Shown: positions 15,457 through 60,950, counted from the stretch's first letter. The stretch is 64,000 nucleotides of DNA from Dictyostelium discoideum (GCA_000004695.1 CM000150.2:3552001-3616000), one strand, 5' to 3'. Program-made: numbers and translations. Notes: a model not told the origin generated them from the letters alone.

Positions 15457-15461
<5 letters not shown>

Positions 15462-18888: not shown

Positions 18889-18891
<3 letters not shown>
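15457..18891 (-). CDS. Non-LTR retrotransposon ORF2: APE-type endonuclease, reverse transcriptase, C-terminal CCHC zinc finger
   Basis: 1144 aa. N-terminal MTWNCQG...endonuclease. RT motifs FIPGRLLHNNI, FYDFEKAFDSISH, YADDTV. C-terminal HHGENCHSCKEEESSMHIFFECK zinc knuckle. Confidence 0.9.
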
Positions 18892-18974
<83 letters not shown>

Positions 18975-18980
<6 letters not shown>

Positions 18981-19114
18981 AAATGAGACAGATGGAAGTA
19001 TGTCTTGGAGTACTTTGGGCAATTTGTCTCTTAGTGCTGCTTCCATTAGATCTGATTCTTCCTTTGTTATTTTAGTTGGAGTTTTGTAAGGTGTTGATAT
19101 TTCTTGGTGATTAG
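18975..19114 (-). CDS. TRE5 ORF1 C-terminal fragment (downstream of the Skipper insertion)
   Basis: Continues the ORF1 frame across the 5 bp TSD. Reads ...NHQEISTPYKTPTKITKEESDLMEAALRDKLPKVLQDILPSVSFV* with TAA at 18975-18977 (complement). An A-run and then the ORF2 ATG follow. Confidence 0.6.
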
Positions 19115-34234: not shown

Positions 34235-34323
34235 TTATTTTTTTTTATCTTTGATGCACCATTGGCTATTATCTATATCTTTTAACTAATTTTTTTTTAT
34301 TTTTGGAATTAGTTTAAATTAAG

Positions 34324-34355
<32 letters not shown>

Positions 34356-36840: not shown

Positions 36841-37094
36841 TTCTTAGATATATTGTTTTTTTTTTTATTCTAGCATAAAAAAAAAAAAAAAAAAAAAATG
36901 AGACCGTTTTGTTTCAGAAAAAAAAAAAAAAAAATTGATTTTTTTGTGTGAAAAAAAAAAATGAATCTATTTTTGCACTAAAATCTAAATTTGGATTTTT
37001 TTAAAAAAAAAACGAACGAATTTTTTTTTTATTGTTTTCGAGCATCTCTGCAAATCTTTTTTAATTTTTTTTTTACGAAACAGTTCTAAAATGT

Positions 37095-37155: not shown

Positions 37156-39075
37156 ATGTTTTTTTTAAATCATATTTAAATTAATAATATCATTTTTATT
37201 TTTTATTTTATATTGCAATTGTTTCACATTTGGTAGTTACACATTTGATACAAAAAATTGGTCAACAAATTGTGCACTATCATCATGTGTTTTTTATGAA
37301 TTTAATAATAATAATTATTATGATTTAAGTTCTATTGTCCACAATGATCATCAAGGTCCTTACAAAGCAAGTTTTCCTGCCGAACTTCCTGGTGGAATTC
37401 AAACACCTTATACAATGTATTTTAATCCTTGTTTTAATGATAATGTGTGTCCAGGTGGTCTTTCAGTAGGTAAATTCACAAAAAATTCTTAATTCCGTTG
37501 GTTCACTTTCAGAGCCACATTCTATAACATTAAATTCAGAAGGTATTTCTATTGAATATCAATCAGCTCTTTTACCATCAACAACATGTACCTCTAATGG
37601 TAACCGTAGAACTTTGGTTTTATTTATTACTTGTATCCCAACCGAAACATTTAAAATTATTGGTACTTATAACAGAAGAGTATTATGTGAACATACAATT
37701 TATATATCTTCAAAATTAGTTTGTAAAGATAGAGGAATATTATTTAATCAAGGTCTATTTTATGATTTAACACCAATGAAATTGTAAGTTGTTAAATTCT
37801 TTTTTATATTTTTTTTTTATTTCAATTTTTTTTTTTTTTTTGTTTTTAATAAAAAAAAAAAACACCAAACACGAAATTTCAAAATAAAAATAAAAATTAA
37901 AATATCTAACCACTTTTTTTTCAATTTTTTATTTTTTTCTTCCCACAGATTAACAAGCACTTCACACCAAATTACCAACAGTGACCAAACACAAGATATT
38001 CTCTTAATTTATTTGGAAATGTAAATAGATGTGGTACTTTCGGTACATCAACATTAAGTTGTCAATCATGTATTTTAACAGTTGCTAATAAAGCGATCGA
38101 TTATAAACTAGATTCAAGATATGCAACATCACCAAAATCAGTTATGGTAGGATCTCTCAGTCAACCAAGAATTACATTTACAAATGATGGAATAACTATA
38201 ATTTATAGCGCAATAGCAGGCTTCACTGAATGCTCATCAAATGGTAACAAATATTCATCAAAGTATATTTTAATTTGTGATCCATTCACAGAATATTATG
38301 TAGATAAATTTACATTAGAATCACAATGTATTTATCAAATTAAGGTTTATACTAAATACGCATGTCCAACATTACGTTTATTCAAACAAACACAATATTA
38401 TGACCTTTCACCATTGATGTTGTAAGTATTCAATTTATTCTTGTATTTCTTCAAACAGTTATTAATTAATAATAAAATAAATAATAGGGATTCAACAAGA
38501 AATTATACAACAAGTCATATTACAGACGGATATGAGTATAATATTGTATTCAATATTGGTAATAAAGCACAAATGTGTAGCGATGCATTTAATGATTATT
38601 ATTTTGCTTGTCAATATGATCCACGTTATAAAAGTTTTATTCCACTTGCAAAGGCAAGTTTAGGTCAAAGAGTAACATTTGATTTAAATCAAGTTAAATT
38701 CGAATATACTTCACCAATGTCAGGTTGTTTAAGAACTTTTATTATTGTTTTAACTTGTGATGAAAACCAACATTATCAATTAGTTTCAACTTTAGAATCT
38801 CCTGCATGTGTATATACAGTAACAATTAAAACTAAATATGTATGTGAATCAACAATTTATTACAATAGATTCGACTATACATATTATGATATTACTCCAA
38901 TAAAAACGTAAGTTTTAAATTAAATTTGAAATTAAATTTAAATATAAATAATAATAATAATAATATTAATAATCTTTATTGTCAACAACTAAAATATTAA
39001 TTTAATTAGAAAAAAAGATAGTCCAAATAAAATAGATATTGATGTTGGTGGATATCCATATAGAGTAAGTAAATT

Positions 39076-39120
<45 letters not shown>

Positions 39121-42100
39121 AACAAATATTTTTCTAATAGCTTTTTTATGGTATCGGTAATACTGTTGATTATTGCGGAGAACAAGTGGGATCAGTCCCT
39201 GGTGTAGATTATCAAGCTTGTCAATATCTCAGTGGTCTTGTTATTCAAGTCGGTAGTTTAAAAAATACATCAATGATTCTTAATAAGGATGGTATAAGTA
39301 TATATCAAACCTCACCATTCGATTTAACCAAAGTGTGCCAAAATACAAGATATCAAAGAGTAAACATTTTAAATATGGTATGTGATCCAACAGCAACAAA
39401 TGATGTGGTTAGCGCTACTGAGACTGCCAACGATTGGGCATGTGAATATACAATCGAAATTAAAACTAAATATGAATGTTCAATTAATTATGCACCAGTA
39501 TTACCGGTTGTTGGAAATCCATGTTCATACAGTTGTACACCACCAGGTGCTTTAAATCCAAAAGATATAGTTAGTGTACTTTTAAATTTAGGTGTTTGTT
39601 CTCAGAGATTAATAAATATGGTACAGGTGCAATCATTACTTAATATATTTAAAGATACTTGGGTTTCAAATCACAATGGGTATGATGATTGGATGGGTGG
39701 ACAACTTTATTCACTATTATTAACAGGTAAACCACAGTCAACAATTTCACCATATGTTATTTCAATTACACATGATAATTTAAGTACATATGGTACCAAT
39801 GGGTTAAGTAAAGCAAAAAATTCAATCAATGATTTTCTTACTATTACAAATGATCTTCTTGAAATTTCAAATCGTGCAGCCAGTTCAACCGTTACCAAAT
39901 ATACATATTCAGATGGAGCAATTACATAAACTTTTATCAACATCAACTGGAGGTCTTGCAATTATTAAATACAAAAATTTGCTATGCTACTATTCAATAG
40001 TCCCAAATTTACAAACTTTAATTATTGGGAGTTATTTGCTTTCTTGCCCATATTATTCACTACCAACTATACAGTGCACAGTTTAACACCATCAATAGGG
40101 AAAGTTGGAGATACTATCACAATTAATGGTCAAAATTTAGATACAGATATATATGATGTTTATTTCAACATTATTGATGACAACAGTAAAATTAAAGCAA
40201 CAATAACATCAAGAACCGTAAGTTTTGTAAAAGTAATTGTTCCAAATGGTTTTGGTTATGCATTAGTCTACACTCAAAATATACTTAATCCAACTACCTC
40301 TGATAAACTTTCATTTTCATATCCATCACCAGCGATTGTCAAAGTAATTAGTCAACCATTTAGTACAGATATCATCAATAGATTCTTTGTTATTGGTCAA
40401 AACCATCGTTCTTTAATAACCAATATTGTTATTAATCCATACATCGATAATATTGAAAAAGAAGCAATTTATTGTGAAATTGTTGTCGGTAAACAAGCGT
40501 CAAAGACTATATATCCAAGTGATTTAGATGAAAATCCAACAAATTATAATTTATATTATTATCCCCCAGCAGTTGTTGACATATCAGAAGTTTCAACTGA
40601 TGGTGGTGAAGTTATAATAAAAGGTACAAATTTTATTCCAGCCTCGCTTAAAGATCAAATTAATAATCAACCAATAATCGGTTCACCACATTCAGTAGAG
40701 TTTAATAATGTTTTATCTTCATCATGGACATGGATTGATTCAACACATGTAGAAGCCATCGTACAAAAAGGTATTGGTACAATCTCTACAATTGTAAATG
40801 TTGGTGGTCAAAGATCTGATTTAAATCCAATTCCTGTAAATTTTTACAAAAGACCTGAACTAGATAATAAAAAATATGAAAACTTTGCAAATAGTGATAT
40901 TTTAATAACTGGTTCTAATTTTGTGCCAGTTGGTTTTTCAGCAGGTTCATCAAGTTCTGTCAAAATTGGAGGTATTCCCTGTAACTCTGTAACATGGGTA
41001 GATTCAAAATCTGTTATTTGTAATGTGCCAATTGGAACTGGTGATAATTTAAATATCATCAAAAAACCGAATTAAATGATTATTTCTCATATTTAGGGCA
41101 ATGCGATTTCCTCTGTAGCGATTTATCAAATTTAGTAAGTTTTTAAACATTTTAATTACAGAAAAAAAAAAAAAAACTAAAAAATACTAATTTATTATCA
41201 TTTTTATCTCAAAGGAATTAGCAAAAGTTATTAGAGAGAATAAAAAAGATTTAAAGAGTACTCTTTTATTAACAGGTGTATGTTTAGAACAAATCGAGCA
41301 ATATAATTTCACAGATATTAATGATGAAATTGAATCAAGTTGGATTGAAAACTCAATTATTAATGATTGGACAAGTGGTAAATTCTATAATTATTTTAAA
41401 TCATCAGAATCATACTCAACAGTTAAAACACTTGCAAAATATATTACTCCAAAGAATCCATGTATTTATGATAATAAAAGAGTAAAGAATTCATTAGATT
41501 ACCATTTTGAAATCAATTCAGATATTTTCCATTTAATTGAACTTTCAATTTCATCAAAAATCAGTTATCCAGATTCACCATATGAAACTTATTTCTATGA
41601 ATCATCAAGCAACCCAGAGTATGGTCTTTCAATTATTACATTTGATTCAGCAATTTGTAGCTTTACAGAATCAACTATTCAAGACTATCAAAGTGGAAAA
41701 GAATTACAATCATGTTCAATCATTCCAATTATAAATCAAGTAATTAATCCAACAACAACACTTCAAGCACCATATCAATATTCACTTACAATTATTGGTA
41801 GATTATTTGATAGTTCAACTAGAATATTTTTATCAGGTTATGAATGTCCAATCATTGGTAATATCGCTACTAATCAAAATGATTATATTCAAACTCTTAG
41901 TTGTTCAGTACCACCAGAAATCGAATCATACTCGCCCTCTCAAATTAGTTTTTACAATGATTATAGTGAAAATAATATATAGAATATGAAGATGGATCTG
42001 ATGAAATTGTTGTTAAATTTAATAATGAACCAACAGCTATCATTGAAAACACAGAAACATACATTAAAATTAAAACCCTTAGTGGTGATGAATTTAATGT

Positions 42101-43487
42101 ACCAATTGCTGTAGAATTAAACGGTCAAATAAGTAATACAGATACTTCATTCGTTTACTCAAATCCAATAATTGAAAGTGTAACACCATCATCAAGTAGC
42201 TCAAAATCAAATACTAATATCATCATTAAAGGACAAAATCTTGGATATTTAACAAACACTCCCAAAATTACAATTGGAAGTAGTAATTGTTTAAATATCA
42301 AAACTATATCTCCAAATGAAATTCATCGTTATGAAATCAAGCGCAGGCACTAAACAATTAACATTAACCTATGAAAGTTATCAACCAACCTATTCACAAT
42401 TCACTCACAAAAACGATGATGACAGTGATAGCCACGATGATGATGATGATGACCATAAAAACAATAATGGACCAAAAAACACCATATTAAGTATTCTTGG
42501 AGGTATAATTGGAGCAGCAGCATCAGCGGCCGTAAGTGGATTTATAACAAGCATTTTCGGTGGTGCGACATCAGTAGCTACAGCAGCAGCAACAGCAACA
42601 GCTATTGCCGGTGCAATTACCGAAGGTGTTGCAGTGGCCTTTACAGGGGTATCAGTAATAGCAGCAACAGCAGGTGGTATTGTTATTACTTCAATTGTAA
42701 CAGCAACAGCCATCCTTATTTCAGGTGGAAGTACACAATCACCAAACCCAACGCCAACCGATAACTATTGGGTAAGATGTATGGTCGATTATTCAAGATT
42801 AACTTTACAAGTCGATAATCTTTACGGTCAAGATATAGTATGGATTGATGGTAATGGAATTTCATCAATTTTCAAAGAATCATTCTCTTGTAAACCTGAC
42901 CTTATTAACGATGGTATGATATGCACTCAACAACATCAAAATGGAACAAATTCAACAACCACATTTGGTAATTCAACATTAATTTGTCATATTGACCCAA
43001 CAAAATCATGTGAAATTTCACCACCATTCATCATACCATCCGATCCAATTGAAGATGATGAATATTCAAATATTTTAGAATGTCAATATAATCTCATTGA
43101 AAATTCATTATCAACACACTCTAATAATAGTCCATTAAGATGTTATAATAATGAAACTGAAAATTACTTCACTATGAATACTACACTTTCATGCTCAAAA
43201 GATGAATCATTAAGTCAAGATAAATATACGATTTCTTGTTTATCAGATACAGATGATACCCAAATCTTTTTCTATAAGAACTCAATTACATGCATTACAG
43301 ATTATCCATACTATAAATGTACAATAAAAATTAGTTAACGACTGGAACTAATGCTGAATGTCCAAAAAATGAAAAAGAACTTCATTATGATCTTTCAACT
43401 TCTCTAACATGCACAGATTATATCACACTTAAAAACTCCACTTATTCAATTTCATATTCAAATTACATTTGCATTAAAACAAAATAA
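37156..43487 (+). pseudogene. Degenerate, internally deleted copy of the giant MRH/IPT-repeat gene (paralog of 47415..57732)
   Basis: Colinear with 47.4-57.7 kb at roughly 85-95% nt identity. Defects: corrupted start and signal peptide (ATGTTTTTTTTAAATCAT...TAA); 17 nt deletion in exon 1; 1 nt deletion in exon 2; 11 nt deletion after ...SDGAIT; missing roughly 480 nt IPT unit; loss of roughly 3.9 kb of IPT repeats (joins at 41990); 22 nt and roughly 100 nt deletions near the 3' end. Only fragment ORFs remain. Confidence 0.75.
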
Positions 43488-43721: not shown

Positions 43722-45990
43722 TTATTTCTTAGTGCACCATTTGGTTTTATCTAATTTTGAAAACTAAAAAAAAAAAAAAAATTTATTTTTGGAATTAGTT
43801 AAATTTAAAAAAAAATAAATTTTTGGGATAGTTAAATTTAAAAAAAAATTTAAATTAAAATATAATTAATACTTACATCTTTGGTATATTCACCCAAAAC
43901 TTTTGTAAATTCCTCAATGGAATTGATGTTTTGTAGATCACCATGTTTATTTTCAGTTAAGAGAATACAATAGATAAGATGATCTTGGCAATCTGGATGA
44001 TAATTAATGATTTTTGAGTCTGTATCACTTGGATAAGCTTTACATATTTTTTTATTAATTTCATTGTAATCCTTATCATCATGACCTTCTTCGCTATCAC
44101 TTTGATCGCCTTCGATTTTATTTGGGAATTTAAATGGTTCTAAATCATCTTTGATTTTAACTTCTTTCAATTGAATGATGTTTTCATTTTTAATAAATTT
44201 CAATTTTTTATAAAGTTCTTTTACTAAATCAATATTTTTTAAATCGATATATATCTTATCTGGGAAAGGTGCGAGTATTGATGTTGGTTCGATAACGGTA
44301 TTTTGTGTTATAGCAGTTATCGTTTCTTTACCATCTTTATTTTTTGATGAGGTAACTGTTAATGTTGATTCAACATAGATATCTTTAAACAATTGGTAAG
44401 ATTTGGATTTTTCAAAGCTACAAGTGACATCATCATTATCATCACATAAAATAATTTCCCCATTGATTGATGGAAACACATTGAAATCGAATAACTCTGA
44501 TTTGTATTCATTTGTAGTTTGATCCTTAAGTTGAGTTAATAATGGAATGTAAACATTGTCATAACCATAGTTATATTCATTTGAAAATAATTTATCTTCA
44601 TCTTTTTCATTATTGTAAACGATAATAAATGGATTCAAATGATAGTATTTTTCATCATCTCCATAACCTTTAACCTTGGTTTCAAAGTCTAACTTTCTGT
44701 TACCTAAAATTTTATTTAGATCCTTTGGATATTTAGCTATTAATCCGTTTAAATTCAACTTTTGACCTGCAATGCTATTTAATCTTAATGATTCTTTTTT
44801 AAGATATTGATTATTCTCTGGGTGTCTAATTATACCAACTCTTCTATAAAAGTATTCAGAAAGATATTTCATTTTATCACTGCAAAAAGCACCACCTCCA
44901 CGTGACTCTTGCTTTCCTTGCCAATTTAAATCACCAAAGCAAATAGTCCCACCACCGCCACCGCTATCTACTTTATCTATATTATTGAATTGATAAGAAA
45001 TTTTTGAATGGTCACTTCCTGAATCAGCACTAATAACTTTTGACCAAGGTGTTTCGAATCTGTAAGAAAGATAAATTGATTCAACTGCTTGAGAAATTGC
45101 ATTTTCACCTTTTGTAATCTTTGTTTGAGTATGGACCATTGTTTTAAAATTATTACCATTTTTAAAATTATCTATATAATGCCAAATTATAAAAAATTTA
45201 ATTTTTTCCTTGTGAGTTTCTTCAATTTTTTCATTATACTTTTTATAAAGGTTTTTATTTGTTGTTTGAATGAAGTAATCCCCTTTATTTTTACTCTCAT
45301 AAATTTTATTATAGTGAACATTTGTTTCTTTAGGTTTTAGAGTTAAATCTGATGATGTAATATCTTCGTTTAGAATTAATTTTGCCTATTTTAAGAATGT
45401 AAGTATGATGATTTATTAACACAAATTTATAATTAAAATTACTTACCAATTGTGACCATTTATTTAAATAAATAATTCCATTCCATATATCAGGATCACC
45501 ATCATTCTTTTTTTTAACCAAAATATAATCACTCATTAGACCATCCAATTTTTTAAAAGTTTTGGGAATTTCTTTTGCTAAATTTTCAATTACATCCAAA
45601 TTAATGACTCCTGGGCTTATCTTTTCAACCTCTGTATGGAGATTTTCGGAATAAAGATTGGCTGATGATACCTTTTTAGCCTTTTTACCAAGTCCTGTTG
45701 AAACTGTATTAATGGTTTGAATATTTAAATTACTATAAATAATATACTTTGGAATAATATGAAGTTCTTCTTTTGACAAAGTTATACAAATTGAATGTTG
45801 AGCATGTTGATTATTTAAAGTATCTTTGTCGTAATTAAAAAGAGGTTCATATCCTGTTTCTGGAGATTTTGGAACACTGTGAATTACATGAATTCCCCCT
45901 TCTTCATTCCAAATGAAAAATCCTTTTGCATGTGCCTTTTTTAAATAAATAAATTAAAAAAAAAAAATATGTTAACAAATAATGATAACC

Positions 45991-46021
<31 letters not shown>

Positions 46022-46413
46022 AAATAATAAACACAAACACTATCGGAACCACCACTGATCTGATCATTATAAGTCAAACTATTATATATAATTTTTTTAG
46101 ATTCATTTGGTAAACTCTGTTTGTATGTTGATGTAATAGGGTTTGGTTCTTTTGGATCTCTAATATTATAATTTGCAATTTCATTTATCTCTGAACTTCC
46201 TCCTTTTAATGTGTTATCAGTATAAATAGAACCTTTACTGTGACCTAATTGTTCTAAAAACCACCATTCGACATTCTTTTCTATTGTAACCCCATCCCCA
46301 AATACTTGACCATCCTTGTAAATATTTTTTGTTGTTATACATTTTGGAGGAACACAATAAATATGTGATATTAATACAAATAAATATAGAAAAATAATAT
46401 ATTTATTTCTCAT
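43722..46413 (-). CDS. Secreted DNase II-like nuclease with long C-terminal extension, paralog 2; exons (complement) 46039..46413, 45447..45935, 43877..45385, 43722..43763
   Basis: Same architecture as paralog 1. Signal peptide MRNKYIIFLYLFVLISHIYC. AHAKGFFIWNEEGGIHVIHSVP and DSGSDHSKISY...GGGAFC motifs. GTTTGT, GTAAGT, GTAAGT donors. Terminal micro-exon FSKLDKTKWCTKK*. Confidence 0.75.
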
Positions 46414-46483
46414 TTTCTTAAGTCTAATGTTATAATGTTTCAATTTTTTAATGGTATAAAAAAAAATTGGGTGTGTTTTTGCG

Positions 46484-46514
<31 letters not shown>

Positions 46515-47560
46515 GCTTTGTTGTCAACAAAGAAAAAAACCTAAAATTGGATCATTTAAAATAAAATAAAAAAACGAACGAAAATATTTTTTTTTAATCG
46601 TTTTTAGATGATTTTCCCACTTCTTTGATTATTGAAAATCTTTTAAATATTTTAGATTTTTTTTTTTATTTTTTTCGACCCATTATTTAATAAAAAAAAA
46701 AAATTATAAAAATTACCCCCACAAACCGTTTAGTTTTTTTTTTTTTTTCACAAAGCCTGGTTTTTATTTTTTTTGACACTTTTTAGCTTTGCATCTTTAT
46801 CGCTTTAAATACGTAAAATACAACATTTTTTTTAAAAAAAAAAAAAAAGTATGGTTAAAAAAAAAAAAAAATCATACTGAAATTAAAAAAAAAATGGTAA
46901 AATTTAAAATAGTTATATCATTTTTATTATTTATTTTATATTTTAATTGTTTCACATTTGGTAGTCATGTGTTTTTTATATTAATACAAATAAATATAAA
47001 AAAATAATATATTTATTTCTCATTTAAATTTTTTAATGGTAAAAAAATTGGGTGTTTTTTGTGAAAAAAAAAAAAAAATAGCCTTTTTGTGAAAAAAAAA
47101 GAAAAAAAAAAATCTAAAATTGGATCATTGAAAAAATAAAATAAAAAACGAACGAAAATTTTTTTTTAATCGTTTTTAGATGATTTTTCCACTCCTTTTA
47201 TTATTGAATCTTTTTGAACATTTTTCTACCGCTTGGTTTTTTTTTTTTTTACAAAGCTTTGCTAGTTTTTATTTTTTTTTTACACTTTTTAGCTTTGCAT
47301 CTTTAAAACTTTAAAATACGTTTTGGAAAATACTATATTTTTTTTTTTCAATCAACCACACTCTTTTTTTTTTTTTTTTTAAAAAAAATAATCATATTGA
47401 AATTAAAAAAAAAAATGGTAAAATTTAAAATAGTTGTATCATTTTTATTATTTATTTTATATTGTAATTGTTTCACATTTGGTAGTTACACATTTGATAC
47501 AAAAAATTGGTCAACAAATGGTACACTATCATCATGTGTTTTTTATGATTTTGTAAATAA
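46395..47560. repeat. Tandem duplication (about 590 bp unit) of the bidirectional promoter region plus the 5' ends of both flanking genes
   Basis: 46850-47040 holds a second copy of the giant-gene start (ATGGTAAAATTTAAAATAGTTATATCATTTTTATTATTTATTTTATATTTTAATTGTTTCACATTTGGTAGTCA) fused head-to-head to a second copy of the DNase 5' end (reverse of ATGAGAAATAAATATATTATTTTT...). The intergenic block (AAAATTGGGTGT...CGAACGAAAAT...AATCGTTTTTAGATGATTTT) occurs twice. Junction ORF 46789..47007 is a by-product. Confidence 0.7.
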
Positions 47561-49250
47561 CGATTATTATGATTTAAGAGCTATTGTCATACCTGATCAT
47601 CAAGGTGCTTACAGAGCAAGTTTCACAGCTGAACTTTCTGGTGGAATTCAAACACCATATACAATATATTTTAATCCTTGTTTTAATGATCATATGTGTC
47701 CAGGTGGTCTTTCAGTAGGTTGTACTTTTATTGTACAAAATTCACAAAGAGTTCTTAATTCTGTTGGTTTACTTTCAGAATCTCATTTTGTTACATTTAG
47801 AACAGATGGTATTACTATTAAATATCAATCAGCTCTTTTACCATCAACAACATGTGCCTCTAATGGTAACCGTAGAACTATGATTTTAGTTATCACTTGT
47901 GATCCAAATGAACCATTTAAAGTTACAAGTACTTATAACAGAAGAGTGTTATGTGAACATACAATTTATATCGCTTCAAAATTAGTATGCAAAAATAGAG
48001 GAGTATTATTTAATCAAGGTCTATTTTATGATTTAACACCAATGAAATTGTAAGTTATTTAATTCTTTTTCATATTTATTTTTTTTTATTTTTTTTTTTT
48101 TAAAATAATTATCCAAAAATAAAAAAAAAAAAAAAAGGATCAAACACGAAATTTCAAAATAAAAAAATCTAATCTTTTTTCACTTTTTTTTATTTTTTTT
48201 TAATTTTTTTATTTTTATTTTTTTTTCCCACAGATTAACAAGCACTTCACACCAAATCACCAATGATGACCAAACAAAAGATATTCTCTTTAATTTATTC
48301 GGAAATGTAAATAGATGTGGTACTTTCGGTACATCAACATTAAGTTATCAATCATGTATTTTAACAGTTGCTAATAAAGCGATCGATTATAAACTAGATT
48401 CAAGATATGCAACATCACCAAAATCAGTTATGGTAGGATCTCTCAGTCAACCAAGAACAATTACATTTACAAATGATGGAATAACTATAATTTATAGTTC
48501 AACAACTGGTTTCACAGAATGCTCATCAAATGGTAACAAATATTCATCAAAGTATATTTTAATTTGTGATCCATTCACAGAATATTATGTAGATAAATTT
48601 ACATTAGAATCACAATGTATTTATCAAATTAAGGTTTATACTAAATACGCATGTCCAACATTACGTTTATTCAAAGAATCACAATATTATGACCTTTCAC
48701 CATTGATGTTGTAAGTATTCAATTTAATTAAAAAACCTTTTTAATGTTTTATTCTTGCACTTCTAACAATTATTAATAATAAAATAAATAATAGGGATTC
48801 AACAAGAAATTATACAACAGGTCATATTACAGGCGGATATGAATATAATATTGTATTCAATATTGGTAATAAAGCACAAATGTGTAGCGATGCATTTAAT
48901 GATTATTATTTTGCTTGTCAATATGACCCACGTTCTAAAAGTTTTATTCCACTTGCAAAGGCAAGTTTAGGTCAAAGAGTAACATTTGATTTAAATCAAG
49001 TTAAATTCGAATATACTTCACCAACAACAACTAGTTGCCCATTAAATTCCAATAAAAGAACTTTTATTATTGTTTTAAATTGTGATGAAAACCAACATTA
49101 TCAATTAGTTTCAACTTTAGAATCTCCTGTATGTGTATATACAGTAACAATTAAAACTAAATATGTATGTGAATCAACAATTTATTACAATAGAATTAAT
49201 ACTACCTTTTATGATATTACTCCAATAAAAACGTAAGTTTTAAATTAAAT

Positions 49251-49336
<86 letters not shown>

Positions 49337-52300
49337 CTTTATTAACAACCAAAACTATTAATTTTAATTAGAACGAAAGATAGTCCAAAAACTGTAGATA
49401 TTGTTGTTGGTGGATATCCATATAAAGTAAGGGATAATTTTTAAAATTTTTTTTTTTTTTGTTTTTTTTTTTTTAAACAAACATCAAACGTGTCAAACTG
49501 AAATTTAAATATTTTATGTATATATTTAAAAATATTTACTAACTTTACTTTATTAATTTTTTATAACAGCTTTATTACAGTATAGGTAATACTGTTAATT
49601 ATTGTGCAAATCAAGTGGAGTCAGTTCCAGGGGTTGATTATCAAGCTTGTCAATATCTCAGCGGTCTTGTTATTCAAGTCGGTAGTTTAAAAAATACATC
49701 AATGTATCTAAGTAATAATGGTATAAATATATATCATACTACACCATTTGATTTAACCAGAGTATGCCAAAATACAAGATATCAAAGAGTGAACTCTTTA
49801 AATATGGTATGTGATACAACAGCAATAAACGTTGTGGTTAGCGCGACTGAGACTGCCGATGATTGGGCATGTATATATACAATCGAAATTAAAACCAAAT
49901 ATGCATGTCCAATTAATTATGCACCAGTATTGCCAGCTGTTGGAAATCCATGTTTATACAGTTGTACACCACCAGGTGCTTTAAATACAAAAGATATAGT
50001 TAGTGTACTTTTAAATTTGGGCGTTTGTTTCTCAGAGATTAATAAATATGGTACAGGTGCACAATCATTACTTGGTATATTCAACAATACTTGGGTTTTA
50101 AACCACAATGGATATGATGATTGGATGGGTGGACAACTTTATTCACTATTATTAACAGGTAAACCACAAACATCGATTTCACCATATGTTATTTCAATTA
50201 CACATGATAATTTATGTACATATGGTACCAATGGGTTAAGTAAAGCAAAAAATTCAATCAATGATTTTCTTACTATTACAAATGATCTTCTTGAAATTTC
50301 AAATCGTGCAGCCAGTTCAACCGTTACCAAATATACATATTCAGATGGAGCAATAACATTATCAACACATAAACTTTTATCAACATCAACTGGAGGTCTT
50401 GCAATTATTAAATACAAAAATTTGCTATGCTACTATTCAATAGTTTCAAATTTACAAACTTTAGTTATTTCGAATTATTTGCTTTCATGTCCATATTATT
50501 CACCAACCATTACATTGTACAGTTTAACACCACCAACAGGGAAAATTGGAGATACTATCACAATTAATGGCCAAAATTTAGATACAAATAGATATGATGT
50601 TTATTTCAACATAATTGACGACAACAGTAAAGTCAAAGCAACAATAACATCAAGAACCGTAAATTCTGTAAAAGTAATTGTTCCAAATGGTTTTGGTAAT
50701 GCATTAGTCTACACTCAAAATATACTTAATCCAACTACCTCTGATAAACTTTCATTTTCATATCCATCACCAGCGATTGTCAAAGTAATTAGTCAACCAT
50801 TTAGTACAGATATCATCAATAGATTCTTTGTTATTGGTCAAAACCATCGTTCTTTAATAACCAATATCACCATTTATCCATACATCGATAATATTGAAAA
50901 AGAAGCAATTTATTGTGAAATTGAAAAGTATTGTCCAAGTTCATCAAAAATTCCATCAATTCCAGAATCAGCAGTAGGTCATCCATGTATTAATTCAACA
51001 GTTTACTCTGAGAATTCCCAGTTTTTCGATTATTCCAAGTATGATGTTTTTGTTTGTATCAAATCATCATTAGGTGTTGGAAGTGGTATCATTAAATTCC
51101 CATCACAAACATTTACATTTGCATACTCTTATAAAGCACCTCTCTTATATTATACACAACCTGGCATTCGTATTCCAACCGATGGTGGTAGTTTTCAATT
51201 GAGTGGTAAAAACTTTCCACCAACACAAGAAATCATTGATCTCGGTTTAAACACATCTGTAATCATTTGGAATAATGATAATTTTGTTACATTCAAAGGA
51301 ACAAATCTTACAAGCACCAATATCAATTGGAAGAGTTCTAAATCGATTTTATGTGTTGCACCACCAGGTTTCGGTGGACCATTCATCGTTACGGTAACTG
51401 TCGGTAAACAAGCGTCAAAAACTATATATCCAAGTGATTTAAATGAAAATCCAATAGATTATTATTTATATTATTCTCCACCAACTTTGCTCGACATATT
51501 AGCAGTTCCAACTGATGGTGGGGAAACTATAATAAAAGGTACAAATTTTATTCCAGTCTCGCTTGCAGATCAAATTAATAATCAATCATTAATTGGTTCA
51601 CCAAATTCAGTCACGTTTAATAATGTTTTATCTTCATCATGGAAATGGATTAACTCAACACATGTAAAAGCCATCGTACAAAAAGGTATTGGAGCAATCC
51701 TTACAATTGTAAATGTTGGAAGCCAAAGTACTGAAACGAGTCCATATCCCGTAATTTTTTATAAACAACCTGAATTAGATAATAAAAAATATGAAAACTT
51801 TGCAAATAGTAATATTTTAATAACTGGTTCTAATTTTGTACCAGTTGGTGTTTCAGCAGGTTCATCAAGTTCTGTCAAAATTGGAGGTATTCCTTGTAAC
51901 TCTGTAACATGGGTAGATTCAAAATCTGTTATTTGTAATGTACCAATTGGAACTGGTGATAATTTAAATATCCAAGTAACAGTTGGAGGTCAACAAACCG
52001 AATTAAATGATTATTTCTCATATTTAGGGCAATGCGATTTCCTCTGTAGCGATTTATCAAATTTAGTAAGTTTTTAAACATTTTAATTACAGAAAAAAAA
52101 AAAAAAACTAAAAAATACTAATTTTTTACATTATAATCTCAAAGGAATTAGAAAAAGTTATTAGAGAAAATAAAAAAGATTTAAAGAGTACTCTTTTATT
52201 AACAGGTGTATGTTTAGAACAAATCGAGCAATATAATCTCACATATATTAAAAATAAAATTGAATCAAGTTGGATTGGAAGTTCAATTATTAATGATTGG

Positions 52301-55300
52301 ACAAGTGGTAAATTCTATAATTATTTCAAATCATCAGAATCATACTCAACAGTTAAAACACTTGCAAAATATATTACTCCAAAGAATCCATGTATTTATG
52401 ATAATAAAAGAGTAAAGAATTCATTAGATTACCTTTTCGAAATCAATTCAGATATTTTCCATTTAATTGAACTTTCAATTTCATCAAAAATCAGTTATCC
52501 AGATTCACCATATGAAACTTATTTCTATGAATCATCAAGCAACCCAGAGTATGGTCTTTCAATTATTACATTTGATTCAGCAATTTGTAGCTTTACAGAA
52601 TCAACTATTCAAGACTACCAAAGTGGAAAAGTATTACAATCATGTTCAATCATTCCAATTATAAATCAAGTAATTAATCCAACAACAACACTTCAAGCAC
52701 CATATCAATATTCACTTACAATTATTGGTAGATTATTTGATAGTTCAACTAGAATATTTTTATCAGGTTATGAATGTCCAATCATTGGTAATATTATTAC
52801 AAATCAAAATGATTATATTCAAACTCTTAGTTGTTCAGTACCATCAGAAATCAAATCATACTCGGCCTCTCCAATTAGTTTTTACAATGGTTATAGTGAA
52901 AATAATATATATAATTTCTTGTTGGATTTTAAAAAATCATTCTTTTTTATATATCCAATTTCAACAGTAACTCAAATTCAATACCCATCAAGTGGTCCAA
53001 TTCAAATGAATTCTGAAATTAAAGTAATTGGTTTTAATTTCTTCCCATATGGTATTACAAATCCAAGCATTCAAGTTTTTATTGATGATCTTGAATTAAC
53101 AGGTACTATCTTTGGATTAACAAGCATAAATGGAGTTGATTCATTTTCATTTATTGCTTCTGGTTTAGGTTCTTTAAAGTATGTAAAAAAAAAAAAAAAA
53201 TTAAAAAAAAAATTAAATTATTAATATTTAAAATATATTTTTTTCAAAGTTACATTCAATTATTTTATAGTGATAGTTTACCAATGATTATAAACGATGA
53301 TATTAATTTAGAATTTTCATTTGAAAGACCAATTGTTAATAGTATATTACCAACAAATGGAGATTACAATACAAAGGTTACAATTAATGGTAATAATTTT
53401 AGAAAAGGTCAATCAGTAAAAATTGGAGACATATTAGTAAATGATATTGAATTCATTTCAAATCAAAAGATTATTGTTTCAGCACCATTTGGATTTATTA
53501 ATGGACTTGTAGTTGTTTATTCAGATGATCAATACAGTTTAGAAGAAATATCATTTAGTTATCCTTCACCAATTATAGACCAAGTCATTCTTTCAAATTA
53601 TGAATCAAAATTAAACACAACAGGTACAAATTATTTCACAGTAATAGGTAGAGGTTTAGGTACATACATTGCAGAACAAGTCGATATTATTATTAACCAA
53701 GAGTTTTATGCAAGTTGCGAATTCGATTTCTGTGAAAGTTTAGAAATTATTGAAGATATAGATATAAAAGATCAAGGAATTTGTCAATATTTAAAATATA
53801 AAAATTATCAATATATCGATGAAAACTTTGATATATTAAATTGTATTTTAGCTGATTCGATTGGTAAAGATAAATCAATCAGTATCAAAATTTCAGAATT
53901 CCAAAACCAAACTTTCACCTACTCTTATTATGAACCATGGATTGAAAAATTAACACAAAACTCTTCATCAGCAACAACTGATGGTGGTGAAGTTATCGTT
54001 ATAAATGGTTACAACTTTTTACCATTCGAAAATTTAAGTCCATACTATGAAAACAATGAAACTATTGCACAATGGTTAAATCAATCAGAAATATTAATTG
54101 GTGAAAGCTATCTTTGTCAATCAATTAATTGGACCAATTCCTATGAATTAAATTGTACAATCCCACCGGGAATTGGTGTTAATCATACAATCATTGTAAA
54201 AGTAGGCCTTCAATCATCAAATCATACTGATTATTTGTATTCTTACGATCCACCAAAACTTGATACAATCAATAATTCCACCAAAAATGAGACACATTAC
54301 TATTCTTCAACAGATGGTAACAATGAAATTATAATAACAGGTAATAACTTTATTCCAAAAGAGTTATCAGATCATTACAACCAGAATGAAAATAAAACTA
54401 TAAATTCAATACTATTAGGTAAACAATATTGTAATGAAACTATTTGGATTAATTCAACAATAGTTAAATGTAAACCATTAGCAGGTATTGGGTCAAATTA
54501 CAAAATAAACATTAAAGTTGGTAATCAAAATTCAAATGAAACCATTTACTTCTCATATGAGAAGCCAATTTTAGATTTAAAGAATTACACAGGTTCAACA
54601 AATGGTAATACTGAAATTACAATAACAGGTATCAACTTTATTCCAAAAGAATTAGCAGATAATAATAATTTCAATCAATCAGAGAACTATATAATGATTG
54701 GTGATAATAAATGTAATGAAACTATTTGGATCAATTCAACAACAGTTAAATGTAAACCAATATCAGGTACTGGTACCAATCATAGAGTTATCATAACAGT
54801 TGGTAATCAAAACTCAAATGAAACGGTCTACTTTTCATATGATAAACCAATTTTAGATATTAAAAACTATAGTAGTCCAACTGATGGCAATACTGAAATC
54901 ACAATTACAGGTGAAAACTTTATTGAAAATTATAATCAAGAAAAACATAATGAAAATGATAATTTCGTTAGAATCGGTGAAAATAAATGTAATGAAACAA
55001 AGTGGATAAATTCGACAACAATTAAATGTAAATTAATTCAAGGTATTGGTTTAGATTATAAAATAGTTGTAACAGTCGCCAATCAACAATCAAATGAAAA
55101 TGTTTTCTTTTCATATGAAAAACCAATGATTGATAGTAAAACACTATTAGCATCAACCAGTGGTAGTGAAACTATTAAAATTACAGGTACCAATTTCATT
55201 CCATCAACTTTAGTAGAACATTACAACAAAGAAGAAAATAAAGATAACTCAATAAATTCAGTTACTATCAATAACGAGTTTTGTAATGATATTACATGGA

Positions 55301-57732
55301 TTAACTCAACAGAACTAACATGTAAACCATTAGCAGGAGTTGGAACTAATCATACTATATTCATTTTGGTTGGAACTCAAAAATCAAATCAAGTAAAATC
55401 ATTCTCATATAAACCTCCAAAGATTGAAGAGTTTAAATACTACACAGCACCAACACATTCCAATAAAATTATTACTATAACTGGTGAAAACTTTATTCCA
55501 ATCGAATTATTATCAAAAGACAACAGCAATAGTTCAGTACTCATTGATAATATAAAATGTGAAGAAATCAAATGGATTGATTCTACAAAAGTTTCATGTC
55601 AAGTTCCAGTAGGTCAAGGTAAAGATTTATCGATTAAAGTTAAAATTGAAAATCAAGAAACTGAAGAAAATCAACAATTTTCATATGATAAACCATTTAT
55701 TCAATCAATCAATCCAAATAAAGGAAGATGTAATCAAGAAGTATTAATTACAATTCAAGGTGATAGTTTTGGAAAGAGTGATCAACTAATTAAAATTGGT
55801 AATAACGAATGTCAAGATATTCAATTCTATCCAAATCATACATTTACATGTAAAGTTCCAATCGTGGAGAATTCAATTAAATCCATTGTTTTATTAAATG
55901 TTGGAAATCAAGATTCAAACGATAACATTACATATAAATACTATGGACCACCAGAAATTAAAAGTATTGGTTTACCATCATATCTTTCATTCAAAGGTGA
56001 TGATTTAATAACAATCATTGGTAATAACTTTATAGAATATGATGATGGATCTGATGAAATTGTTGTTAAATTTAATAATGAACCAACAGCTATCATTGAA
56101 AAAACAGAAACATCTATTAAAATTAAAACTCTTAGTGGTGATGAATTTAATTTACCAATTGCTGTAGAATTAAATGGTCAAATAAGTAATATCGATACTT
56201 CATTCGTTTACTCAAATCCAATAATTGAAAGTGTAACACCATCATCAAGTAGCTCAAAATCAAATACTCATATCACCATTAAAGGACATAATCTTGGATA
56301 TTCAACAAACACTCCCAAAATTACAATTGGAAGTAGTAATTGTTTAAATATCAATACTATATCTCCAAATGAAGTTCGTTGTATAGTGTTGAAATCAAGC
56401 GCAGGCACTAAACAATTAACATTAACCTATGAAAGTTATCAACCAACCTATTCACAATTCACTCACAAAAACGATGATGACAGTGATAGCCACGATGATG
56501 ATGATGATAAAGACAATAATGGACCAAAAGATACCATAATAAGTATTATCGGAAGTGCAATTGGAGCAGCAGTATCAGCAGCCATAAGTGGACTAATAAC
56601 AAGCATTTTCATTGGTGGAACATCAGTAGCCACAGCAGCAGCAACAACAACAGCAACAGGTACCGCGATTGCAACAGCAACTACAGCGTCAACAGCAACA
56701 GCTATTGCCAGTGCAACGACCGAAGGTGTTGCAGTAGTCTTTACAAGGGTATCAGTAATAGCAGCAACAGCAGGTGGTGTTGTTATTACTGCAATTGTAA
56801 CAGCAACAGTCATCCTTATTTCAGGTGGAAGTACACCATCACCAACTCCAACTATAACTCCAACTATTTCACCAACTCCAACACCAACCGATAACTATTG
56901 GGTAAGATGTATGGTCGATTATTCAAGATTAACTTTACAAGTCGATAATCTTTACGGTCAAGATATAGTATGTATTGATGGTAATGGAATTTCATCAATT
57001 TTCAACGAATCATTCTCTTGTAAACCTGATCTTATTAACGATAGTATGATATGCACTCAACAACATCAAGATGGAACAAATTCAACAACCACATTTGGTA
57101 ATTCAACATTAATTTGTCATATTGACTCAACAAAATCATGTGAAATTTCACCACCATTCATTATACCATCCGATCCAATTGAAGATGATGAATATTCAAA
57201 TATTTTAGAATGTCAATATAATCTCATTGAAAATTCATTATCAACACACTCTAATAATAGTCCATTAAGATGTTATAATAATGAAACTGAAAATTACTTC
57301 ACTATGAATACTACACTTTCATGCTCAAAAGATGAATCATTAAGTCAAGATAACAATACGATTTCTTGTTTAGCAGATACAGATGATACTCAAATCTTTT
57401 TCTTTAAGAACTCAATTACATGCATTACAGATTATCCATACTATAAATGTACAATGAAATCTGAACCATCACAAGATGATAACATAATTCCAGAACCAAC
57501 ATTACCACCAACTCCATCAATTGATGATGATTCCACATGTATTTATGATTCAGCCAATCCATATTCAATAGATCTCCAACCAACGATTGGAACTAATGTC
57601 AAATGTCCAACAAATGAAAAAGAACTTCATTATGATCTTTCAACTTATCTAACATGCACAGATAATACCACCCATAAAAACTCCACTTATTCAGTTTCAT
57701 ATTCAACTTATGTTTGCATTAAAACAAAATAA
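47415..57732 (+). CDS. Giant secreted/transmembrane protein (about 3200 aa): signal peptide, 4 MRH-like domains, about 20 IPT/TIG repeats, long Ala/Thr/Gly hydrophobic segment, Cys-rich C-terminal domain. Exons 47415..48049, 48234..48710, 48795..49232, 49372..49426, 49570..52065, 52145..53178, 53271..57732
   Basis: Signal peptide MVKFKIVVSFLLFILYCNCFTFG. MRH-like units end ...RRTMILVITCDPNE...VLCEHTIYIASKLVC, ...KYILICDPF...QCIYQIKVYTKYACP, ...RTFIIVLNCDENQ...CVYTVTIKTKYVCES, ...VNSLNMVCDTT...WACIYTIEIKTKYACP. Many IPT/TIG units of form P.I..I...S..GGT.ITI.G.NFIP......I..G...C....W.NST.I.C..P. Introns (GTAAGT donors) keep phase. Exon 52145..53178 is open for 1034 nt but has no ATG/GTG/TTG, so it is absent from the ORF track. 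Ends TAA at 57730-57732. Confidence 0.7.
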
Positions 57733-58257: not shown

Positions 58258-60888
58258 TTATTTCTTAATGCACCATTTGGTTTTATCGAATTTTGAAAAC
58301 TAAAAAATTTTATTTTTGGAATTAGTTAAATTTTAAAAAATTAAATTAAAATAAAATATATTTAATACTTACATCTTTGGTATATTCACCCAAAACTTTT
58401 CTAAACTCTTCAATGGAATCGATATTTTGTAGATCACCATGTTTATTTTCTGTTAAGAGAATACAATAGATAAGATGATCTTGGCAATCCGGATGATAAT
58501 TAATGATTTTTGAATCTGTATCACTTGGATAAGCTTTACATATTTTTTTATTAATTTCATTATAATCCTTATCATCATGACCTTCTTCGCTATCACTTTG
58601 ATCGCCTTCTTTTGGGAATTTAAATTTTTCTAAATCTTCTATATTGACTTCTTTCAATTGAATGATGTTTTCATTTTTTTTAAAATTCAATTTTTCATAG
58701 AGTTCTTTAACTGAATTCACAGTTTTTAAATCGATATATATCTTGTCTGGGAAAGGTGTGACTGTTGATGTTGGTACAACAATTGTATTTTCTGTTTCAT
58801 CTTTTACACTTTTATCTTTTTTTAAAGTAACTGTTAATGTTGATTCAACATAGATATCTTTATACAATTGGTAAGATTTGGACTTTTCAAAGCTACAAGT
58901 GACATCATTATCATCACATAAAATAATTTCCCCATTGATTGATGGAAACACATTGAAATCAAAAAACTCTGATTTGTATTTATTTGTTGTAGTTTGATCC
59001 TTAAGTTGGGTTAATAGTGGAATATAAACATTGTCATAACCATAATTATATTCATTTGAAAATAATTTATCTTCATCTTTTTCATTATTGTAAACGATAA
59101 TAAATGGATTCAAATGATAGTATTTTTCATCATCTCCATAACCTTTAACCTTGGTTTCAAAGTCTAGCTTTCTGTTACCTAAAATTTCTTTGAGACTATT
59201 TGGATATTTAGTTATTAATCCGTTTAAATTCAACTTTTGACCTGCAATGCTATTTAATCTTAATGATTCTTTTTTAAGATATTGATTATTCTCTGGGTGT
59301 CTAATTATACCAACTCTTCTGTAAAAGTATTCAGAAAGATATTTCATTTTATCACTACAAAAAGCACCACCTCCACGTGCCTCTTGCTTTCCTTGCCAAT
59401 TTAAATCACCAAAGCAAATAGTCCCACCACCGCCACCACTATCTACTTTATCTATATTATTGAATTGATAAGAAATTTTTGAATGGTCACTTCCTGAATC
59501 AGCACTAATAACTTTTGACCAAGGTGTTTCGAATCTGTAAGAAAGATAAATTGATTCAACTGCTTGAGAAATTGCATTTTCACCTTTTGTAATCTTTGTT
59601 TGAGTATGGACCATTGTTTTAAAATTATTACCATTTTTAAAATTATCTATATAATGCCAAATTATAAAAAATTTAATTTTTTCCTTGTGAGTTTCTTCAA
59701 TTTTTTCATTATACTTTTTATAAAGGTTTTTATTTGTTGTTTGAATGAAGTATCTCCCTTTATCACTTTCATAAATTTTATTATAGTGAACATTTGATTC
59801 AAGAGGATTTAGAGTCGGGTTTGATGATGTAATTTCTTGGTTTAGAATTAATTCTGCCTATTTTTTAAGAATATTAGTTTGGTAATTTAAAAACACAATT
59901 TTAAAAATATAAATTTCTTACCAATTGTGACCATTTATTTAAATAAATAACTCCGTTCCATATATCAGGTTCATTTCCAACAATAATATGGTCCTTCATT
60001 AGGTTATCCAATTCAATAAAAGTTTTGGGAGGTTCAATTTTACTATTAATTGTTTCCAAATTAATGACATTTTGGTTCTTACGGTCAAGCTCAGTTTTGA
60101 GGTATTCTGAATAAGAATTGGCTGATGATACCCTTTTTACCTTTTTAAAAACTGTATTAATGGTCCGAATATTTAAATTACTATAAATAATATACTTTGG
60201 AATAATATGAAGTTCTTCTTTTGACAAAGTTATACAAATTGAATGTTGAGCATGTTGATTATTTAAAGTATGTTTGTCGTAATTAAAAAGAGGTTCATAT
60301 CCTGTTTCTGGAGATCTTGGAACACTGTGAATTACATGAATTCCCCCATTTTCATTCCAAATGAAAAATCCTTTTGCATGTGCCTTTTTTTAGATAAATA
60401 AAAAAAATAAAAAAAAAATAAAAATATTAGAAAACTATTAACAACAAATAATAATCAAAAAAAAAAAAAAAAAAAAAAAAAAAGATAAAATAATTAACAC
60501 AAACACTATCATCACCATTACTGGGTTGATCATTATAAGACAAACTATTAAATAAAATAGCACCAGATTCATTTGGTATACTCTGTTTGTATGTTGATGT
60601 AATCGGGTTTGGTTTTGTTGTATTTGGATCTCTAATATTAAAATCAACTATTTCATTAATCTCTGAATTCATTTCTTTTAATGTGCTATCAGTATAAATA
60701 GCACCTTTACTGTGACTCAATTGCTCTAAAAACCACCATTCCACATTCTTTTCTTTAGAATCTCCATCTCCAAATACCTGACTATCCTTGTAAACATTTT
60801 TTGTTGTTTTACATTTTGGAGGATCACTACAATAAATCTGTGATATTATTACAAATAAATATAAAAATATTATATATCTATTTCTCAT
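58258..60888 (-). CDS. Secreted DNase II-like nuclease with long C-terminal extension, paralog 3; exons (complement) 60505..60888, 59922..60383, 58383..59857, 58258..58299
   Basis: Same four-exon architecture. Signal peptide MRNRYIIFLYLFVIISQIYC. Both HxK motifs. Middle exon 9 codons shorter than paralog 2. Terminal micro-exon FSKFDKTKWCIKK*. Confidence 0.7.
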
Positions 60889-60950
60889 GTTATTATTTTT
60901 GTTTTATTTATTTTAATATAAAAAAAAAAAATTATTTATATATAAAAAAA

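Follow-up and report, generated by a model that had tools for sequence, protein, structure and literature searches.

Analysis of a 64,000-nucleotide stretch of Dictyostelium discoideum DNA (GCA_000004695.1 CM000150.2:3552001-3616000, referred to here as the window) revealed a single gene of seven exons, whose product is predicted to be an uncharacterised secretory-pathway protein of 3198 residues. The gene, named here the MRH-TIG gene, occupies positions 47415..57732 on the plus strand (3198 codons and a TAA stop codon), and its translation corresponds to XP_002649199.1 / C7FZW8. The protein starts with a predicted signal peptide, which is followed by four MRH lectin domains, an IPT/TIG array, an acidic patch, a segment rich in Ala, Thr, and Gly (A/T/G segment), a linker, and a Cys-rich C-terminal part. 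This order had been proposed in a preceding sequence-only reading of the same DNA and was confirmed here. C7FZW8 is proposed to be a lectin that sits on a long stalk and is anchored in the membrane by a two-helix hairpin with both ends outside, and we give this proposal an even chance of being correct. The gene model and the domain labels of C7FZW8 are already public (RefSeq and UniProt); as a gene, it is not a discovery.

The exons of the MRH-TIG gene were located at positions 47415-48049, 48234-48710, 48795-49232, 49372-49426, 49570-52065, 52145-53178, and 53271-57732; all features of this gene described below lie on the plus strand. The joined exons comprise 9597 nt, in which the lone stop codon is the terminal one. 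Every intron is of the GT...AG type, and the GC content is 26 to 32% in the exons versus 6 to 15% in the introns. Over the window as a whole, the GC content ranges from 16 to 36%, and introns are short, very AT-rich, and of the form GTAAGT...AG. This composition and these introns are typical of dictyostelid DNA. The 3198-residue translation is identical, residue for residue, to XP_002649199.1 (EEU04149.1; UniProt C7FZW8), a D. discoideum AX4 chromosome 1 protein publicly labeled "IPT/TIG domain-containing protein," and this exact match bears out the earlier proposal of one gene of seven exons and about 3200 codons. The identical 3198-residue protein is encoded in a second D. discoideum assembly (KAM9941035.1), and co-linear full-length models were found in D. 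cf. discoideum (3206 and 3198 residues) and D. dimigraforme (3191 and 3174 residues). An alternative in-frame acceptor of intron 6 at 53277, 6 nt downstream, would lead to "SLNLPM," as in the model of the paralogue C7FZX2 (P0001). A long (AAT)n microsatellite (49253-49337) fills most of intron 3.

The exon at 52145-53178 and the 53178/53271 junction, to which the sequence-only reading had drawn attention, are the same in the RefSeq model and in the other Dictyostelium models. A split into two or more genes between 52065 and 53271 is suggested by a bacterial-style list of open reading frames (ORFs), in which exons 5 to 7 appear as separate ORFs. However, introns 5 and 6 measure 79 and 92 nt, have a GC content of 8 to 14% and consensus GT..AG ends, and are free of AATAAA. 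In exon 6, an in-frame Met first appears 287 codons in, so this exon cannot start a gene of its own. In addition, the frame is continuous, the junctions recur in the models from other species, and a pseudogene copy in the window keeps the same order. The split-gene reading is thus close to refuted.

Hydropathy analysis of the N terminus revealed a signal-peptide-like sequence (residues 1 to 23, MVKFKIVVSFLLFILYCNCFTFG; 47415..47483), with a predicted cleavage site that was placed by eye. It is followed by four MRH (P-type lectin, CI-MPR-type) domains (47484..49917, spanning introns 1 to 4), which comprise residues 24 to 196 (MRH1), 197 to 357 (MRH2), 358 to 501 (MRH3; 48670..49185, spanning intron 2), and 502 to 651 (MRH4). 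The repeats are mutually homologous, 144 to 173 residues long, and have the opening motif "YYDL(S/T)P" in common; six Cys residues are invariant across eight aligned repeats. A profile of the four repeats matched bovine CI-MPR (6um1) among the PDB sequences with an E value of 3e-24. The best-matching CI-MPR stretches were residues 1258 to 1371 and 346 to 476, which we take to be domains 9 and 3. Further PDB matches included human CI-MPR fragments, erlectin (ER lectin 1), glucosidase II beta, CD-MPR, OS-9, and GNPTG. All 21 PDB matches up to an E value of 10 were MRH proteins except for one weak match, Bam H (E=0.36). MRH3 alone also matched the Pfam family PRKCSH_1 (PF13015) with 24.1 bits against a cutoff of 23. 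This search of solved structures agrees with the sequence-only reading, in which the four domains had been described as MRH-like, and by sequence profile all four repeats at the N terminus are genuine P-type lectin (MRH) domains.

Sugar binding was assessed by aligning the MRH repeats of seven family members with the domain 9 and domain 3 stretches of CI-MPR. The residues that line the mannose ring in these CI-MPR domains are a Gln after a Cys, the Arg in "YQR," a Glu four positions before a Cys, and a Tyr two positions after that Cys. In MRH3, all four residues are kept in each of the seven aligned members. In MRH4, Gln, Arg, and Tyr are retained, whereas an insertion of two residues shifts the Glu out of place. 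MRH1 keeps only the Arg, and MRH2 keeps only the Tyr, with the Glu shifted. MRH3 is accordingly listed as the predicted sugar-binding domain, with mannose-type sugars as its expected ligands, and MRH4 probably also retains the residues for holding such sugars.

The lectin head is followed by a stalk in which Pfam detected the TIG family (PF01833) with an E value of 9.2e-135 (439 bits, 13 stretches). A repeat hidden Markov model (HMM) built from the protein itself identified 15 TIG domains. Three more repeat-sized segments are in register but did not score (about residues 935 to 1060, 1555 to 1640, and 1812 to 1930), and a fourth segment (1640 to 1735) reached only 15.8 bits in Pfam. The earlier estimate of about 20 repeats was therefore slightly high for this copy; 13 (Pfam) to 15 (HMM) can be demonstrated, with up to 18 repeat-sized units. 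The array is divided into two blocks. Block 1 (residues 851 to 1344; 50515..51996) contains four scoring TIG domains and one divergent unit with a Cys-containing insert (about residues 935 to 1060), and block 2 (residues 1546 to 2770; 52679..56445, spanning intron 6) contains 11 scoring TIG domains and two divergent repeat-sized units. Each block is preceded by a copy of an orphan domain with Cys residues, designated the X domain: copy A comprises residues 652 to 850 (49918..50514), and copy B comprises residues 1345 to 1545 (51997..52678), spanning intron 5 and most of exon 6. Copy A and the first approximately 190 residues of copy B show 26 to 28% identity and have a Cys pattern in common. 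No profile match to the X domain was obtained in Pfam (E values up to 10, noise only) or among PDB sequences. The sequence comparison indicates that the body of the protein is an internal duplication of a unit consisting of an X domain and a TIG array.

Behind the last IPT/TIG domain lies the acidic patch KNDDDSDSHDDDDDKD (residues 2778 to 2793; 56467..56514), which is partly encoded by a (GAT)5 repeat. The approximately 98 residues after this patch are nearly all Ala, Thr, Gly, Ile, Val, or Ser, with a single Glu and a single Arg. Three parts were distinguished within this segment. Helix candidate 1 (residues 2800 to 2828, TIISIIGSAIGAAVSAAISGLITSIFIGG; 56533..56619) reached Kyte-Doolittle values of up to 2.0 and a Hessa-scale sum of 0.9 to 1.3 kcal/mol. 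The middle part is a Thr/Ala tract (residues 2829 to 2865, TSVATAAATTTATGTAIATATTASTATAIASATTEGV; 56620..56730), which is proposed to form a loop; its Hessa-scale sum of +5 to +8 kcal/mol means that it should not insert into a membrane alone. Helix candidate 2 (residues 2866 to 2897, core VSVIAATAGGVVITAIVTATVILISG; 56731..56826) is more hydrophobic than any other stretch of the protein (Hessa-scale sum, -0.2 to -0.7 kcal/mol). Each helix candidate contains 27 to 29 uncharged residues. In all 3198 residues, only three stretches are of transmembrane grade, namely, the signal peptide, approximately residues 2801 to 2826, and approximately residues 2873 to 2896. Helix 1 carries a small residue at every fourth position (G2806, G2810, S2814, S2818, and T2822), a spacing that favors tight helix packing. 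The sequence-only reading had offered either several transmembrane passes or a flexible stalk for the A/T/G segment, and a mixture of the two is favored here: both ends are of transmembrane grade, whereas passes throughout the segment were rejected because the middle 37 residues are too polar.

Comparison of six aligned intact copies revealed no length change in the segment. The ratio of nonsynonymous to synonymous substitution rates (dN/dS) against D. dimigraforme, tested for regions of the last exon only, was 0.31 for the whole segment (helix 1, 0.54; middle tract, 0.30; helix 2, 0.16), compared with 0.17 to 0.21 for the TIG array and the Cys-rich end. These results indicate that the hydrophobic segment is under purifying selection. 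The DNA of the Thr/Ala tract is an imperfect (GCA/ACA)n hexanucleotide or 36-nt repeat (56628-56708), a simple sequence translated in its Ala/Thr frame. Two ORFs that overlap the segment, 56463-56813 (minus strand, 116 residues) and 56520-56891 (plus strand, another frame, 124 residues), were rejected as genes, since they result from stop-poor (GCA/ACA)n and (CCAACT)n simple sequence.

A Pro/Thr/Ser linker (residues 2898 to 2918, GSTPSPTPTITPTISPTPTPT; 56827..56889), with the sequence STPSPTPTITPTISPTPTPT, connects helix candidate 2 with the Cys-rich C-terminal part (residues 2919 to 3198, 280 residues; 56890..57729). This part consists of three modules with 16 Cys residues in total. The module spacing is C-20/22-C-16/17-C-11/15-C-18/21-C-8/9-C, and the last module is truncated. 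The Cys-rich part contains 10 N-x-S/T sequons (N2957 to N3182), compared to 5.6 +/- 2.1 expected from its composition. An exhaustive HMM search with a C-terminal profile against 1.84 billion representative proteins yielded nine matches, and every match of known source was a Dictyostelium protein; among the nine are P0016, P0017, and P0018, which form a divergent lineage described below. Neither Pfam (E values up to 10, noise only) nor the PDB sequences gave a profile match to the C-terminal part. A glycosylphosphatidylinositol anchor was rejected, as the C terminus (…YVCIKTK) is not hydrophobic. A signal peptidase cut after helix 2, between …ILISGG and STP, which would release the Cys-rich part, was considered, and no evidence for it was found.

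Membrane topology, sugar binding, ligand, and cellular location of C7FZW8 were inferred from these sequence features. According to the proposed mechanism, the product would enter the secretory pathway via its N-terminal signal peptide and expose four CI-MPR-type lectin domains at the far end of a stalk, which would consist of two blocks, each formed by an X domain and the IPT/TIG array behind it. Anchoring in the plasma membrane or an endocytic membrane would be achieved by the two-helix hairpin. In this hairpin, helix 1 would directly follow the last IPT/TIG domain and the acidic patch, the short Thr/Ala loop would lie on the cytosolic side, and helix 2 would bring the chain back outward, so that the Pro/Thr linker would be extracellular, as would the three Cys modules of the disulfide type. 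The regularly spaced Cys residues, which are even in number, the sequons, and the Pro/Thr linker suggest that the C-terminal part lies on the extracytosolic side, like the 2770-residue ectodomain. With two transmembrane-grade stretches and an outside C terminus, a hairpin would be the simplest topology. The protein would then serve at the cell surface as a lectin or adhesin of long reach that recognizes mannose-rich or phosphomannosyl glycans, with the amoeba's own secreted lysosomal enzymes, neighboring cells, and prey as candidate glycan sources.

Several observations weigh against this mechanism. The topology was derived from two simple hydropathy scales (Kyte-Doolittle and Hessa), and the predicted sugar binding rests on four aligned residues only. 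The flanking charges give almost no positive-inside signal; the loop contains one Arg and one Glu, and the Arg is replaced by Gly in P0001. Further counterevidence comes from a divergent second lineage of the family, represented by P0016 (D. dimigraforme), P0017 (DDB_G0268484), and P0018, for which short or partial gene models only are available; the AX4 locus of the DDB_G0268484 lineage may be misannotated or decaying. The C-terminal layout of these three proteins comprises TIG, a hydrophobic stretch, an S/T/A region, a basic RRVVTQVAKNGIKRVST stretch, an S/T/P linker, and Cys modules. The sequence that aligns with helix 2 in P0016 and P0017 reads "RRVVTQVAKNGIKRVST(L/I)…," with Lys, Asn, and Arg and approximately 12 hydrophobic residues. 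It is kept between the two species and is too polar and too short for a bilayer. The D. dimigraforme copy P0005 has two Arg residues within helix 2. Because helix 2 is polar in P0016 and P0017 and contains two Arg residues in P0005, the two-pass hairpin is, as judged from these alignments, not a conserved feature of the family; it may be specific to the sublineage of C7FZW8, or it may be wrong. Structure prediction gave no usable models for the parts concerned. AlphaFold2 reached a predicted local distance difference test (pLDDT) score of 40.6 for the C-terminal 424 residues (6-sequence alignment), in which the first Cys module alone scored 68 to 85, and of 41.9 for X domain B (9 sequences). 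A Foldseek search of the C-terminal model against the PDB returned nothing at an E value of <=0.001. Finally, knockout of DDB_G0270480, a paralogue approximately 97% identical to C7FZW8, gave a mutant that scored as wild type in the sole assay, PCNA induction (PMC7190356). In favor of the mechanism, the choice of this paralogue for that screen, which concentrated on genes with strong induction at an early stage of dedifferentiation, points to transcription of the family.

The data on the A/T/G segment also bear on a second explanation, in which C7FZW8 is a glycoprotein that is secreted or belongs to the extracellular matrix, with no part embedded in a membrane, and the segment serves as an O-glycosylated, mucin-like spacer or as an oligomerization element. 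This explanation accounts for the Thr/Ala simple sequence of the middle tract, for the Pro/Thr linker further on, and for the second hydrophobic stretch of the divergent paralogues, which is too short and too charged for a membrane; the Cys-rich end and the sequons would fit as well, and the unusual both-ends-out topology would not be needed. However, the two uncharged stretches of 27 to 29 residues are of transmembrane grade and the sole ones besides the signal peptide, and within the segment, constraint is strongest on helix 2 (dN/dS of 0.16). In addition, the ends of the segment are rich in Ile, Val, Ala, and Gly and lack Pro, which mucin-type linkers of Dictyostelium usually contain. We consider a secreted, matrix-type protein unlikely.

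To place C7FZW8 in its family, its paralogues were compared. At least three intact members are present in AX4, namely, C7FZW8, DDB_G0270480 (Q55EA6), and C7FZX2 (P0001, 3380 residues), which is 182 residues longer than C7FZW8. In the older AX4 model of DDB_G0270480 (P0020), intron 1 is read as coding (…TKHKIKKQKNLIFFHFFFFFFNFFIFIFFSHR…), another acceptor is used for intron 6, and approximately 14 residues of one TIG repeat are missing. The model from the newer assembly (P0021, 3197 residues) shows none of these differences, and its layout equals that of the C7FZW8 gene. The window itself also contains a decayed tandem paralogue with the same domain order (37175-43484, plus strand) and 88 to 97% DNA identity to the intact gene. 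This pseudogene has several frameshifts and lacks the equivalents of 50924-51398 and 52916-56022; it carries a Cys-to-Trp change in the Cys-rich part, and its Thr/Ala tract is shortened. Its protein identity is 91 to 97% to C7FZX2 versus 71 to 92% to the intact neighbor. In another D. discoideum assembly, it is annotated as a 1032-residue protein (ACTFIT_007562; P0011). As judged from the sequence searches, the MRH-TIG family is found only in Dictyostelium and is lineage restricted, duplicated, and losing genes. One paralogue carries the public label MRH. The MRH protein in the huntingtin-suppressor paper is the product of another gene (DDB_G0283243, chromosome 4). The literature search found no paper on C7FZW8 or C7FZX2 and no functional study of either; the functional information that it did find for the family was limited to DDB_G0270480.

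Lineage restriction, duplication, and gene loss would also be in line with a third explanation, according to which C7FZW8 functions in cell-cell adhesion or self-recognition as a molecule of the TgrB1/TgrC1 type. The IPT/TIG repeats and the variable N-terminal domains would then make protein contacts, and the MRH fold would serve as a scaffold. The Tgr adhesion proteins of Dictyostelium are built from an IPT/TIG array with a membrane segment behind it, and the predicted layout of C7FZW8 resembles theirs. Identity to D. dimigraforme is 60 to 67% for MRH1 and 70 to 78% for MRH4 versus 86% for the distal TIG array; by this comparison, MRH1 and MRH4 are the most variable parts of the protein. Most sugar-binding residues have been lost from MRH1 and MRH2. 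In contrast, the four sugar-binding residues of MRH3 are kept in every aligned copy, and dN/dS is well below 1 in all tested regions, which lie in the last exon. The homologue search with the full protein showed no resemblance to Tgr proteins other than the generic TIG fold. An adhesion function of this kind therefore seems possible but doubtful, and the stalked, membrane-anchored lectin remains the preferred reading.

Analysis of the surroundings of the MRH-TIG gene revealed three DNase II-like genes (Pfam PF03265) on the minus strand (~34312-36843, ~43853-46551, and ~58349-60903), which alternate with the two MRH-TIG copies. Two of the three stand head-to-head with an MRH-TIG gene, separated by a gap of roughly 300 to 900 bp. 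The duplicated unit consists of one DNase II-like gene and one MRH-TIG gene and shows 84 to 88% DNA identity. The same arrangement, with two intact MRH-TIG copies, was found in D. dimigraforme (L001). The head-to-head pairing may reflect coregulation or only coduplication.

DNase II is a lysosomal enzyme, and its head-to-head neighborhood in both species fits a fourth explanation, in which C7FZW8 is an intracellular sorting receptor for lysosomal enzymes, a counterpart of CI-MPR that cycles between the Golgi and endosomes. The protein has several CI-MPR-type domains that match best to the assigned domains 9 and 3, and MRH3 has the full Gln/Arg/Glu/Tyr set. According to the title of a paper cited in PMC7481795, mammalian CI-MPR recognizes Dictyostelium lysosomal enzymes. 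On the other hand, phagosomes of Dictyostelium have already been reported to contain a CD-MPR-like receptor (PMC3756923), and the MRH-TIG family is found in few Dictyostelium species only. The predicted topology provides no cytosolic tail; the roughly 37-residue Thr/Ala tract, the sole candidate for a cytosolic part, carries neither an acidic-dileucine nor a tyrosine motif, and mannose-6-phosphate receptors have nothing that corresponds to the TIG stalk of more than 2000 residues. A role in intracellular sorting is thus highly improbable.

Three further features were identified elsewhere in the window. A retroelement ORF of 1204 residues with a reverse transcriptase domain only lies at 15460-19071 (minus strand), and a gag-pol-type pair with reverse transcriptase, RNase H, and integrase, Ty3/gypsy-like, lies at 20236-25680 (plus strand). 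The third is a glycoside hydrolase family 31 gene of the alpha-glucosidase type (12257-14428, plus strand; TIM-barrel domain, E=6e-108).

The remaining interest of C7FZW8 is functional, as its architecture is uncharacterised and lineage specific. In the papers searched, there is no account of a giant IPT/TIG stalk fused to CI-MPR-type lectin domains, one of which has the complete sugar-binding set, nor of a C-terminal module that is confined to this lineage and preceded by a double hydrophobic segment. Should the lectin head prove active, the family would provide a receptor candidate for the Dictyostelium glycans of the phosphomannosyl or mannose-rich type and a convenient model of MRH reuse outside lysosomal sorting. 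In its most far-reaching form, the proposal is that C7FZW8, DDB_G0270480, and C7FZX2 constitute an unrecognised class of surface lectins, which would hold an intact CI-MPR-type site tens of nanometers from the membrane, capture phosphomannosyl or high-mannose glycans of secreted lysosomal enzymes or prey, and be anchored by a glycine-zipper-like hairpin with both ends out; the pairing with DNase II-like genes would then mark a lysosomal link. We regard this extended version as decidedly unlikely; if it is true, the hairpin may drive oligomerization. The locus further illustrates the recent duplication and decay of very large surface-protein genes alongside DNase II-like genes.

C7FZW8 was finally compared with known systems that resemble it in single parts. 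In its hydrophobic segment, the small-residue spacing of helix 1 and the richness of both helices in Gly, Ala, Thr, Val, and Ile recall the glycine zipper of the N-terminal hydrophobic region of Helicobacter pylori VacA. Such a composition is typical of helices that pack into oligomers. No match of C7FZW8 to the Pfam glycine-zipper families was obtained, and oligomerization and channel formation by its helices would be pure speculation.

With fibrocystin (PKHD1), C7FZW8 has in common a very long IPT/TIG array within a large secretory-pathway protein. The sole nondictyostelid matches to the full protein were P0007 and P0008 (3700 to 4400 residues), with approximately 20% identity over the TIG array. 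Fibrocystin is marked by G8 and PbH1 domains, whereas Pfam detected neither of these in C7FZW8. Conversely, the recorded Pfam hits of P0007 and P0008 include neither the lectin head nor the C-terminal module.

The likeness to CI-MPR lies in the tandem MRH domains of a secretory-pathway protein, which in C7FZW8 are located at the N terminus and have six conserved Cys residues per repeat. In CI-MPR, only some repeats keep the Gln/Arg/Glu/Tyr binding set, and the alignment indicates the same for C7FZW8. However, C7FZW8 has 4 repeats versus 15 in CI-MPR, and orphan domains and IPT/TIG repeats that together exceed 2000 residues come after its MRH domains. Where CI-MPR has a single pass and a tail with sorting motifs, C7FZW8 has a double hydrophobic segment and a Cys-rich C terminus; the type I single pass with a sorting-motif tail that marks a mannose-6-phosphate receptor was not found in it.

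The Tgr proteins (TgrB1 and TgrC1) resemble C7FZW8 as dictyostelid proteins of the surface type, in which a signal peptide and an IPT/TIG array are combined with a membrane segment immediately after the last repeat. Tgr gene families evolve quickly by duplication and loss. In contrast to the Tgr proteins, C7FZW8 is about three times larger, carries MRH lectin domains, two X domains, and a Cys-rich C terminus, and probably has two hydrophobic helices.

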